The notes below the pieces were generated by a model. That model had not been told where the DNA came from and did not search any database. It was given only the letters and a program-made list of their open reading frames with translations. From Octopus vulgaris (taxonomy: Eukaryota), in the NCBI GenBank assembly GCA_951406725.2, contig OX597820.1, forward strand, positions 51,150,001-51,214,000: 64,000 nt of DNA, given 5' to 3'. Of the stretch, positions 9,975 through 55,044 are shown piece after piece. Position 1 is the stretch's first letter. The number at the start of each line of letters is the position of its first letter. A program made the position numbers and the translations under genes.

Positions 9975-10812
9975 TGCCTTTGCACACCTACTAACTCTGA
10001 GGATGTACCACGGTGTCAAATGTTAACTACCAGTGAAGTAAGGTAACATCCCCTATTTTTCAAGCACCTTCCGAAGTATTCGAGCGGTTCCAAGCAGTGC
10101 TGTTTTCTGCAAATGCTCCACTCTTATTGCAGCCCCTATTTCTCCCAAGTACTTCTCAAAATTTTTACGCACAGTTTCCAGGGCTCCGACAATTTATTTC
10201 TATTGCTACCACCTTTTTTATCGACCGCAACTTCTTAACCACCCACGCTAGCCTGTCATAGCTATCGACGTTTCTTTCTTCTTTATCGCATAACATGTTG
10301 TCTGCTGGGCATGCTATGTCTATGATCCAGCATCGTTTGTTTTCTTCCTCAATTAACACTATGACTGGCTTCCTACTCTCTACCACATGGATGCGCAGAA
10401 TCATAAAATCGCATATGATCTTTGCATTATCCTTGTCGATGATGCCTTCGGTTTTACGTTCGTACAAATTTGTGCTCTGTCAAGACTATAATTGTTTCAA
10501 AAATATCCAATGGACAACCCTTGCTATATTGTCATGAGCTCTCTTATATTCTTTCTGGGCTAGGGGCGTTCATTGACTGGCAATATGCCATACGGTTTCA
10601 CCATTTTGTCCGCAGATTCTGCATTTATTACTTTCTCAATATGTTGTCTATTCTGCATTTCATTTAGTTCGTTCTTATTGCTAGCTCTTTGGCAGCACAT
10701 ATTAGAGCCTCCCTTTCCGGTCTTAAATCACTTTTAGTCATCCATAGCCATCTTTTTTCTCTGTCTGTCTTATCTTCAACATCCCTATGAAATTGTCCAT
10801 GCATTCTTTTCG
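9975..10812 (-). mobile_element. 5'-truncated R4/Dong-like non-LTR retrotransposon with a restriction-like endonuclease (RLE), pseudogenised
   Basis: Reverse strand reads MHGQFHRDVEDKTDREKRWLW...ALICAAKELAIRTN*, then the zinc knuckle KCRICGQNGETVWHIASQ* (last Cys lost) and YKRAHDNIARVVHW. The RLE follows (RKPVIVLIEEENKRCWIIDIACPAD...KEE; ORF 10165-10467), ending VEHLQKTALLGTARILRKVLEK*. A short 3'UTR runs into (GAT)n. Confidence 0.9.
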
Positions 10813-12935: not shown

Positions 12936-13169
12936 TTTAGATATTCATTGAATATTTCTTTCTTTCATCAGTATACAAAGGCTAAGAGAAACTTAAAATA
13001 ACTTCAAAGCAACTTTGAAGCAAATGCGAAGAAGTATAGGATATATCTTTTATATGATCAATCATAATCATTAGCAATCTAGGATATTGATACTAGTTTT
13101 CTTATATAAGTTATTAATACATTCAATCATAATGAATTATTAATTATGTTTTTCTTTCTTTTGTTTCAG

Positions 13170-13791
13170 AAAGAAAATGCCGGCAACTATAGATGGGCAG
13201 ATGACAATTGAAAAGACGCCGAGTTATTTTATAACAAAAGAGGTTCCAAAAAGGATCTTCAACATGTCCAAAGAGATGAAAATTCTTGTAATCGTTCGCG
13301 ATCCAGTCACAAGAGCCATTTCTGATTACACGCAACTTGCTTCAAAACGTATGAATCAGATGAAACGCTTCGAAGAACTGGCATTCCTTAATACCTCAAC
13401 TAGAATTGTCGACACAAGTCGAAATATAATTCGGATCGGGGTCTACGCAAAATTCTTGGAGCGATGGCTTCATTACTTTCCTCTATCTCAGATGCATTTT
13501 GTAAGTGGTGAACAATTGATATCTGATCCTGCGCAAGAACTTAGCTTAGTGCAAGATTTTCTTGGATTAAAAAGGATCATTTCTGAGAAACATTTTTACT
13601 TTAACGAGACAAAAGGTTTCCCTTGTGTGAAAAAGGCTGAGGGAAGCGGTCATCCACATTGTTTGGGTAAGACGAAAGGAAGGCCTCATCCAACTGTAGA
13701 TCCGACAATATTAAAGCGACTGAGAGATTTTTATAGGCCGTTTAATACAAAGTTCTACCAAATGGTTAATAGGAATTTTCGTTGGCCATGA
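13170..13791 (+). CDS. HS3ST: Terminal coding exon of heparan sulfate glucosamine 3-O-sulfotransferase (HS3ST2/3/4/6 / Hs3st-B type); partial gene
   Basis: Polypyrimidine acceptor TTTTTCTTTCTTTTGTTTCAG ends at 13169. The phase-2 entry would complete the conserved WYR codon, followed by KKMP. Motifs: TIEKTPSYF, the 3'-phosphate-binding [26 protein letters not shown] and [13 protein letters not shown] (disulfide Cys pair), ending FRWP-TGA. The 5'-PSB motif (GVKKGGT) is not in the window. Confidence 0.95.
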
Positions 13792-22420: not shown

Positions 22421-22610
22421 AAGAAGAATTCACAAAACGAAACAAAACAAAAGACGAAGACATGTGGTGTAGACAGTAAACAGAAGCATTGTTTTAACGC
22501 TCGGGAAGTGAAAGAGTTTTTAACGTCTCGAGCCTACAGTCTTCCACAGAAAGGAACACAGAAACAAACAAGGATATGTAGTCGCTAGCTATCTGTCGTG
22601 GCGAATGATA
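22421..22610 (-). mobile_element. PLE 3'-end repeat (HHR-like family C)
   Basis: Reverse complement matches 45215-45383 and 54918-55044 (AAAAGACGAAGAC..GGTGTAGAC, CGAGCCTAC..TCTTCCACAGAAAGGAACACAG). Flanked by TA runs. Confidence 0.75.
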
Positions 22611-22732
22611 GATTTACTATATATATATATATAACAAAGTGGAGTTGCAGGGTACCGCACGAGTGGAATTATATACGAAAGAAGGTTTGAAAATGCAATT
22701 TTAAGATATGTTTATTTACTTAAGTAAATATA

Positions 22733-44244: not shown

Positions 44245-44745
44245 ACTAGCAGTATCGCCCGGCGTTGCTCAGGTTTGTAAGGGAAATAACTATATAAGCA
44301 TTTTTAGAGAGTTACTTCCTTTATAGATGCCAATTCGGGCTTTCTTAGCCATTTCTGTTTTGGTGTCTTCAAGCCATGAAGTCGTTGTTCTAAAAGAACG
44401 CTGGTCTCCTTGACAACGCATTACGACGCTGATTTCCTTAAACTCCCTTCCCCACAGCTTCACGAGGGAGGGAAGAAGGGGAGAAGCAAACGCAGGTGCA
44501 GGTGTTTGAGCGTGGACGCCAACTCCGCCGCCATCGACACACGAAAAATTATGCATTAAAATGGAATAAAAAATGATGTTAAATTATTTTTAAAATCGTA
44601 GACTCATCGTAGACGCGCGCTAATAGCCAGACGGGCTCGATATTAATCACGACTATAAGATACCCGAATTTGGTTAAACTCCACCGCAAAATGTGGGAGG
44701 AGTTAGGAATCTAAATCGAAGGGGACAGACACTCACACAACTACA

Positions 44746-44750
<5 letters not shown>
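44245..44750 (-). mobile_element. Non-autonomous Helitron-like element
   Basis: Minus-strand 3' end is a hairpin (CCTGAGCAACGCCGGG) plus CGATACTG-CTAG|T. The other end has GACAGACAC...TTTT(AT)n. No TIR or TSD. Confidence 0.65.
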
Positions 44751-44792
<42 letters not shown>

Positions 44793-44796
<4 letters not shown>

Positions 44797-45043
44797 GAAA
44801 TAATGGAGTTGAACGACGAATTAACAAAATTCCTTTATTTTCGACATATGTTTCGAAGGCTGCATATTCCTAATTTCGAAGGAATAAGGGGTGCATTATG
44901 CCGCCTTCTCATCAGGAAAAAACAAGGAACTTATGTCAGCATCAAGATGCACAAAAACTTTTAGATGACTGCCCACACGGATTGCTACCCAGGTATCGGT
45001 TAACCGAATTATCCATAATAAGATAATTCATTCAACTACTCAA

Positions 45044-45049
<6 letters not shown>
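44793..45049 (-). mobile_element. ~255 bp hammerhead-bearing element (HHR family D), copy 1, within (TA)n
   Basis: Bounded by (TA)n on both sides, homologous to 53064-53315 over its length, and contains a complete HHR. Confidence 0.8.
44830..44929 (-). ncRNA. Type I hammerhead ribozyme, apparently intact
   Basis: Minus-strand RNA: UUCCUU-GUU-UUUUC-CUGAUGA-GAAGGCGGCA-UAAUGCACCCCU-UAUUCC-UUCGAAAUUA-GGAAUA-UGCAGCCUUC-GAAA-CAUAUG-UC^GAAAA-UA-AAGGAA. Canonical core; stem I is 5+6 bp, stem II 9 of 10 bp, and stem III is the palindrome ACAUAUGU. Predicted cleavage between 44843 and 44842. Confidence 0.85.
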
Positions 45050-45083
<34 letters not shown>

Positions 45084-45085
<2 letters not shown>

Positions 45086-45383
45086 GCAAACGGAACGCCA
45101 CTTCGCAAACCGGTTCGCGGAACACCTTCGAGACATCCGACTCGGCATTGGCACCCCTTCTTCCTAGCTCTCCTGTGTGACCCCTACGTCCGGCATTCGT
45201 CATGATAGATCGCTCTCCACTACATATTCTTTATTTTCTCTCGTTTCTTTCTGTGTTCCTTTCTGTGGAAGAGCATACGCTCAAAACGTTAAGGACTTCA
45301 CTTCCCGACCGTTAAACTAATACATCTCTTTGTTGTCTACACTACCTGTCTTCGTCTTTTGTTTTTTGTGAATTCTCCCTATA
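45084..45383 (+). mobile_element. Penelope-like 3' remnant: GIY-YIG fragment plus family C terminus
   Basis: Translates GQTERHFANRFAEHLRDIR (YIGxTxRxLxxRFxEH of the PLE GIY-YIG), then joins the family C end with an HHR-like motif at 45257-45295. Confidence 0.8.
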
Positions 45384-45817
45384 TACATATATATATATAC
45401 ATATACATACATAACACATACATACATGTTTGTGTGTGCTTGTGCGTGTTCGTGTGTAGGTATGTGTGTGTTTATGCATATAAATAACGTAGTAGGGAAC
45501 ATATTTATAGATTTGTAATGAAAACTATGTGTTTAGGAAAATATAATCAATTCATCTGTAAAATAAGGGAATCAACTACAAACCAATAATGCTTCTATTT
45601 GGTGAGTGTGTCACCTGATGTTTACGAATTTTATCAATATGCTAACACAACGTGTAGACAGCCTTTAAATTTAGTGGATATTGTGAATTGGGAAGTTCAA
45701 TATGCATATCTAATTAATACATTCTTGGTAGGGTTATGGCTTCTTAATTTCGCTCGTAGTTTCAAGAGGAATCAATTTGTTACTATAATGACTATAATAT
45801 CTATTCAGCTTTAACAG

Positions 45818-53063: not shown

Positions 53064-53497
<434 letters not shown>

Positions 53498-54918: not shown

Positions 54919-55044
54919 AAGAGAGATTACGGACAAAACAAAAGACGAAGACAGGTGGTGCACAAAACAAACAGATGTATTAGTATAACGTTCAGTAATA
55001 GAAAAAGTATTTTATGTTTCGAGCCTACGCTCTTCTACAGAATA
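54918..55044 (-). mobile_element. PLE 3'-end repeat (family C) fragment
   Basis: Matches 22421-22552. Minus strand reads CTGTAGA-A-GAGC-GTAG-GCTC-GAAAC-ATA. Confidence 0.75.

Follow-up and report, generated by a model that had tools for sequence, protein, structure and literature searches.

The window, a stretch of 64,000 nucleotides (64 kb) of Octopus vulgaris DNA, contained a 255-bp element on the minus strand that lay between two (TA)n runs and carried the core nucleotides of a type I hammerhead ribozyme (HHR) close to its 3' end. A second and more diverged member of the same family was found in the same window. The two members, designated copy A and copy B, and the parts of copy A were as follows:

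44750..44793, no strand: (TA)n flank on the 3' side of the element
44793..44828, minus: 3' tail, with weak complementarity to the 5' head; 27/36 identical to copy B
44794..45048, minus: copy A, the complete element of 255 bp with a (TA)n run on either side and a boundary uncertain by 1-2 bases owing to the TA repeat
44829..44930, minus: type I hammerhead domain with extended stem I; 72/102 identical to copy B
44843..44854, minus: GAAA, palindromic stem III (ACAUAUGU) and GUC triplet; copy B keeps 10/12 positions and has the triplet GUA
44855..44908, minus: long stem II of 54 nt, in which segments of 6 bp and 5 bp are separated by a G.A mismatch and followed by a one-sided bulge of 12 nt and a distal hairpin of 5 bp with an 8-nt loop
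44909..44915, minus: core CUGAUGA (C3-A9); copy B has CUGAAGA, which differs at the free position N7 only
44931..44989, minus: variable middle; other or extra sequence in other subfamilies around 44975-44982 and 44919
44990..45048, minus: conserved 5' head, a 9-bp hairpin followed by the motif AACCGATACCTG; common to subfamilies with different middles
45049..45082, no strand: (TA)n flank on the 5' side of the element
53065..53317, minus: copy B, a diverged member with the orientation and ends of copy A, (TA)n on both sides, a different middle and a partly decayed hammerhead

Other repeats bordered copy A on both sides. A second TA-flanked repeat family adjoined it, with three copies in the window (45083-45387, 22422-22617 and about 54935-55042) at 75-80% identity. 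The other side was occupied by a 504-bp TA-flanked block (44246-44749), present as a single copy in the window over the part tested, and the start of this block may be Helitron-like. Positions 13144-13791 on the plus strand were an exon of a heparan sulfate 3-O-sulfotransferase (HS3ST3-like) gene, which at 13177-13788 was 88% identical to a cluster containing the HS3ST3 of the cuttlefish Sepia pharaonis; the next matches were at 73-74%, a pattern that by itself pointed to a coleoid cephalopod host other than this cuttlefish. An open frame at 10165-10479 on the minus strand resembled, by eye, the end of a non-LTR retrotransposon that carries its restriction-like endonuclease.

Architecture of the element and its hammerhead

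The sequence-only reading had described a unit of about 255 bp without an open reading frame inside (TA)n, and this description held: the longest open frame within the unit was 56 codons. ARAGORN detected no tRNA genes in the 64-kb window and Rfam gave no tRNA match, so that a tRNA-like head with A and B boxes, as in tRNA-derived SINEs, was not found. The 9-bp hairpin in the head of copy A was formed by 45029-45021 paired with 45006-45014. A by-eye search for an antisense hammerhead in the head, a bulge-head pseudoknot and pol III boxes found none that were conserved between copies A and B, and neither window locus contained a pseudo-LTR (pLTR), a partial tandem or an inverted 5'-truncated copy. 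The ends had also been described as imperfectly complementary. Complementarity between the head and the tail of copy A was present (-14.2 kcal/mol) but weak, since 21/1000 shuffles paired as well, and for copy B the figure was 39/1000. The head-tail complementarity is thus real but weak, and the inverted ends were gapped, not near-perfect terminal inverted repeats as in a MITE. Copy-specific co-evolution of the two ends was rejected, as ends swapped between copies A and B paired equally well.

All core nucleotides that had been proposed for the minus-strand HHR were found, with CUGAUGA at 44915-44909, GAAA at 44854-44851 and GUC at 44845-44843. The hammerhead was in the sense orientation, and the predicted cut between 44843 and 44842 was located 50 nt from the 3' end of the element. 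The three stems could all form around the core, stem I being open. Stem I consisted of 5 bp (44920-44916 with 44838-44842), an internal loop and another 7 bp, in agreement with the proposed extension across an internal loop. Stem III was indeed palindromic, and its 8-nt sequence ACAUAUGU could form 2 bp with a 4-nt loop in the monomer or 8 bp in the dimer; the monomer was limited to 2 bp because the 3-bp form needs a forbidden 2-nt loop. The proposed branching of stem II, a 10-bp helix with an extra 6-bp hairpin, was wrong, and these two helices share base 44865. Instead, stem II of copy A was predicted to be one long unbranched helix of 6+5+5 bp with a one-sided bulge, in which all but two pairs had probabilities of 0.92-0.99. 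The sequence CCTTCGAAA was present twice in stem II, at 44882-44874 and 44859-44851, and its distal copy was not conserved; the long arm may have arisen from an internal duplication. A second register of the ribozyme using the duplicated CCUUCGAAA at 44882-44874 fitted a loose descriptor, and was ruled out by the variation of its GAAA base 44876 in about 45% of the depth of one public sequencing run (X2).

A type I descriptor applied to both strands of the 64-kb window returned one site, the hammerhead of copy A. Sites were found in 3/100 dinucleotide shuffles with stems of 4+4 bp and in 0/100 with stems of 5+6 bp. Folding of the HHR region, which had been suggested as a check, gave a z score of -3.65 with 0/200 shuffles as good, and folding of the whole unit gave a z score of -2.89 with 2/200 shuffles as good. 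The Rfam hammerhead models, suggested for the same purpose, gave no match to copy A at E values up to 10, probably on account of the length of stem II.

The family in the window and in public runs

Copies A and B were matched by blastn with E values of 4e-15 and 2e-6, and (TA)n was present at 4/4 ends of the 2/2 window copies. Conservation between them was modular. The head was identical at 36/45 positions (45034-44990), apart from its first 15 nt, which were the least conserved part of the head (7/15); the middle was identical at 18/59 positions, the hammerhead domain at 72/102 and the tail at 27/36. The core of copy B was intact except for the free positions N7 and H17, plus one base of the palindrome. 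In its proximal stem II, 10/12 positions paired and two were mismatched; the changes included one compensatory U-A to A-U, one G.A to U-G and three to G-U. Stem I of copy B had one mismatch, and its distal hairpin kept 2/5 pairs in the MAFFT register, or 4/5 if one gap was moved by eye. The covariation evidence comes from these two sequences and is therefore thin. A profile of copies A and B found no third copy in the 64-kb window.

The element is a multi-copy family with several subfamilies and not a single locus. Among the 24 public sequencing runs listed, 20 contained at least half of the sampled element words (4 organism labels, 9 studies), and the highest word share in any of the 24 was at most 0.80. 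Contigs from four of the 20 runs (X2, X7, X10 and X20) were compared with the element, and 3,026 matched in all: 2,342 in X2, 503 in X10, 122 in X7 and 59 in X20. Their identity to the window copy spread from 99% to below 90%. The summed depth in X2 was about 1 million, a sum that is not a copy number, and single listed contigs had depths of 17-313; we infer that thousands of copies of the element exist. Six records listed, from three runs, had a TA flank at identical boundaries and a sequence differing from the window copy.

Contigs in all four runs matched 44982-45059 and then diverged, and loose contig ends near 44981-44982 and 44919 revealed subfamilies with a shared head and ribozyme and other middles. 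One contig carried a deletion joining 44921 to 45006, with the loss of 44922-45005. Past 44977 or 44986, some contigs continued for at least 255 nt in unlike sequence, with 1.3 kb upstream in one case; the share of contigs continuing in unlike sequence was 0 in X2, 0.01 in X10 and 12% in X7/X20. The allele at 44833 reached 48% and 77% in X7 and X20 (guessed to be RNA) as against 0.1% and 4% in X2 and X10 (DNA-like). At 44833 and 44983-45050, X7 and X20 were dominated by other subfamilies than X2 and X10, a difference that could reflect copies lying inside host transcripts. In all four runs, the loose ends before 44982 showed that other subfamilies had a conserved stretch with TGACGT just inside the head, which was absent from the window copy; it resembles a CREB/ATF-type site and is a candidate internal promoter element. 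No head-to-tail or go-back joint was present among the joints listed in the four runs (3,026 contigs), although contigs cannot prove absence, and the sole joint listed was a strand switch in one contig.

None of the 40 substitutions listed, out of 58, fell in the hammerhead core. Thirty of the 40 were mapped on the structure, the other 10 being located at 44825 and 44931-44950. The common ribozyme substitutions in X2 were at the loop positions 44876, 44888 and 44921, and at 44840, where the pair was kept as U-G; a further common substitution in X2, at 45021, turned a U-G pair of the head hairpin into C-G. Low-frequency variants at 44904, 44905, 44870, 44884 and 44886 would break stem II pairs unless an unlisted partner had also changed. 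Pattern scans of other collections yielded no further members: none of the 24 loci in metagenomes could be aligned to the element by blastn, none of the 10 loci in prokaryote genomes had a full stem I (the one weak nhmmer match, L034, with an E value of 0.001, reflected the search pattern), and the scan of viral contigs returned 0 loci.

Predicted folding and cleavage

Secondary-structure prediction suggested that a lone RNA is mostly outside the active fold. In the monomer, the catalytic register of stem I had a predicted probability of 0.07-0.10, with stem I slipping by one register, and stem III had a probability of about 0.01. The AUG of the core was predicted to pair with stem III at a probability of 0.67, and the hammerhead fold lay about 4 kcal/mol above the predicted minimum. 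With the commoner allele at 44921, the predicted probability of stem II fell to 0.04 and a competing hairpin sequestered the core. The palindrome was calculated to form a self-duplex between two molecules at -7.0 kcal/mol. A circular molecule was predicted to be less stable than the linear one (-61.1 vs -66.4 kcal/mol). Given this predicted misfolding of the monomer, cleavage is likely to depend on a dimer or a protein. The ribozyme may also be weak or dead.

A poorly populated catalytic fold in the monomer is common among dimeric metazoan HHRs, and Lunse et al. reportedly described dimeric hammerheads of Penelope-like elements (PLEs) in 2017. Low activity, the formation of dimers and a possible need for factors are described for PLE hammerheads in PMC4209133. 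The predicted folding of the element fits this account and the protein-assisted cleavage described for PAc (PMC11167929).

Relationship to PLEs and retrozymes

The element is reasonably likely to be a dispersed, fixed-ended, non-autonomous PLE that is copied in trans by the enzyme of a TA-targeting PLE, and in this respect SINE-like rather than a tandem retrozyme. All copies examined in the window were monomeric and ended at the same two points; the head, the ribozyme domain and the tail were conserved, whereas the middle could be swapped. The sequence-only reading had called it a non-autonomous retrozyme or PLE-derived family. The PLE-related part of this assignment was supported by the second window copy and the high copy number in public runs, the (TA)n flanks, the HHR 50 nt from the 3' end, the palindromic stem III and the modular conservation. 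The word retrozyme, in its published sense of tandem arrays giving circular RNA, was not supported and is not used for the element here: both window copies were monomers, and the joints listed in the four runs, from contigs that cannot prove absence, included no head-to-tail joint. The (TA)n flanks alone are weak evidence, because many other repeats in the window are TA-flanked too. The fixed 5' end is a point against the PLE reading, as it is atypical of PLE insertions, most of which are 5'-truncated (PMC8557442). Comparison by eye and word search with four published octopus consensi found no autonomous partner. Naiad_Ovul, Naiad_Omin, the 3' part of Naiad_Obim and Hydra-1_Obim shared only short words with the element, which were judged by eye to be due to chance, and three 11-12-nt motifs of the element had 0 matches in the octopus Hydra and Naiad consensi of the accessible part of PMC8557442.

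In the mechanism that we propose, a transcript spanning the unit would be made from a host promoter or from the head. An autonomous PLE of the Hydra, Neptune or Naiad type would supply the RT-endonuclease that binds the structured ends of this transcript. By analogy with PAc of Anolis, the endonuclease would nick (TA)n, and reverse transcription would begin on the uncleaved RNA at a fixed position, roughly 50 nt downstream of where the ribozyme cuts. The end of the 3' tail would be the start of reverse transcription. With its 2-bp stem III and competing folds, the ribozyme is predicted to be largely off in the lone RNA, which would spare the template; cutting would require either the pairing of two RNAs via the palindrome or the refolding of the RNA by the PLE protein. 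The copies retain 50 nt beyond the cut, so the template would have been uncleaved, nicked but held together, or circular, and the simplest option is internal initiation on uncleaved RNA, as in PAc. The long stem II is most likely a protein-binding or folding arm, although this assignment is speculative. The fixed 5' end and the conserved head suggest a second cis-signal, which could be a promoter or a site for the completion of insertion.

Insertion into (TA)n is known for Hydra, Naiad and Neptune PLEs, and almost all Hydra families insert there, all of them with canonical HHRs (PMC8557442). Like Hydra-clade PLEs including Hydra-1_Obim, described by Craig et al. in 2021 (PMC8557442), the element was inserted in (TA)n with an HHR near the 3' end and a palindromic stem III. 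The HHRs of three Hydra-clade consensi in the supplement of that paper lie, counted by eye, 36-47 nt from the 3' end. That supplement lists some PLE consensi of octopus without a pLTR, and Hydra-1_Obim is an octopus member that has no pLTR and a shared end point, as in the element. In contrast to the Hydra clade, the element had no RT-endonuclease reading frame; the HHR of Hydra-1_Obim has another sequence with a 7-bp stem II, and no homology to it was found in the published consensus. The same supplement annotates the cephalopod Naiads Naiad_Ovul and Naiad_Esco as "no pLTR; HHR_half_core". The HHR architecture had been called atypical, and the length of stem II (54 nt) supported this, whereas the branching did not stand and the long arm had a precedent in PLE-X1_sMoe (File S2 of PMC8557442), so that the architecture is rare but not new. 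Stem II of PLE-X1_sMoe has 9 bp and a 35-nt loop, 53 nt in all against 54 in the element; the loop holds a further hairpin by eye, and the HHR is marked in that source as deviating from the canonical form. PLE-X1_sMoe differs from the element in being an autonomous, endonuclease-less spike-moss PLE of unrelated sequence that targets 28S rDNA.

PAc, the Poseidon of Anolis studied by Frangieh et al. in 2024 (PMC11167929), is a model for protein-assisted cleavage and for the copying of uncleaved RNA into AT-rich DNA, and like the element it has its HHR upstream of the element end. According to that source, reverse transcription is initiated at an internal site past the HHR, mainly on uncleaved RNA, and cleavage by the HHR requires protein. 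Unlike the element, PAc is autonomous and tandem with a minimal HHR, and its reverse transcription starts about 85-90 nt past the cut (by subtraction). Non-autonomous PLEs are also represented by Chlamys elements such as MRC1 (PMC8557442), which have 3' ends in common with autonomous families; these green algal elements, in contrast, form pLTRs and head-to-tail insertions and most are described as having no canonical HHR.

It is possible, though we hold this only tentatively, that the family represents a SINE-like class of PLE parasites, namely linear fixed-ended monomers with a 5' head, a 3' long-armed hammerhead and a freely exchanged middle, amplified in octopus-like genomes to copy numbers in the thousands with no tandem arrays. 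Somewhat unlikely is a classical non-LTR retrozyme, in which tandem master arrays would be cut by dimeric hammerheads into monomers of about 255 nt that circularise, a PLE reverse transcriptase would copy each circle once from a fixed start, and pairing of head with tail would provide the closing hairpin of a rod-shaped circle. Metazoan non-LTR retrozymes, described by Cervera and de la Pena in 2020 (PMC7229834) and by Li, Clavereau and Pollet in 2026 (bioRxiv 2026.07.22.740005), resemble the element in their length (150-450 bp), high copy number and proposed mobilisation by PLEs; the size, low GC, lack of an open reading frame and type I HHR with a weak palindromic stem III are as described in PMC7229834. 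The share of monomeric copies ranges from 0 to 1 among retrozyme families, and in some of them such copies are common (bioRxiv 2026.07.22.740005). A circular template would also account for both fixed ends, and the palindrome self-duplex (-7.0 kcal/mol) agrees with dimeric cutting. Against this stand the monomeric state of both window copies, the less stable circular fold and the lack of a go-back or head-to-tail joint among those listed in 4/4 runs, although arrays spaced by long (TA)n would escape the contigs. The element further differs from retrozymes in having both ends fixed in (TA)n, a conserved head with a swappable middle, and a stem II that spans 54 nt compared with the canonical 4 bp. 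That each copy is instead the 3' remnant (a solo pLTR or a 5'-truncated copy) of an autonomous PLE ending in these 255 nt, with no separate non-autonomous family, is improbable: most PLE HHRs are single motifs and most insertions 5'-truncated (PMC4209133), and the contigs that continue in unlike sequence would fit, but these were nearly lacking in X2 and X10, and random truncation would not yield one 5' boundary and head in A, B and the subfamilies with different middles. A MITE-like DNA transposon that entered TA through inverted ends, with an old hammerhead as passenger, would agree with the flanking TA, the fixed boundaries, the exchangeable middle and the imperfect inversion of the ends, but is very improbable given that the inverted ends contain gaps and pair hardly better than shuffled sequence (21/1000 and 39/1000 shuffles as good), that the first 15 nt are poorly conserved, unlike transposase-binding ends, and that core and stem pairing are maintained at the RNA level.

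The element, which we prefer to regard as a non-autonomous PLE, does not define a class of its own among either ribozymes or retroelements. In the literature searched, outside Repbase, Dfam and subscription papers, no description of a hammerhead repeat family in an octopus, a cephalopod or a mollusc was found, in line with the suggestion that the family was undescribed in this lineage. The species set of bioRxiv 2026.07.22.740005 includes no mollusc; its supplements may list related families, and the element may already be in Repbase or Dfam as an unclassified repeat. The finding adds a young, high-copy repeat family with a predicted ribozyme to a lineage for which that literature describes no hammerhead repeat, and it indicates that a genuine core can escape the standard hammerhead models if its stem II is long. 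At 255 nt, the element is a natural minimal PLE substrate, the conserved head and tail of which should mark the cis-signals for the PLE RT-endonuclease; because its copies retain 50 nt downstream of the cut, it can be used to test the copying of uncleaved, nicked or circular RNA by PLEs. If the ribozyme is active and the family is a SINE-like class, long-stem II hammerheads that are invisible to Rfam and to short-spacer descriptors would be abundant in animals. Activity would also mean that genuine ribozymes may be present in some of the "hammerhead-less" Naiad PLEs that have been scored as half-core (with a spacing of 35-50 nt), two cephalopod families among them.
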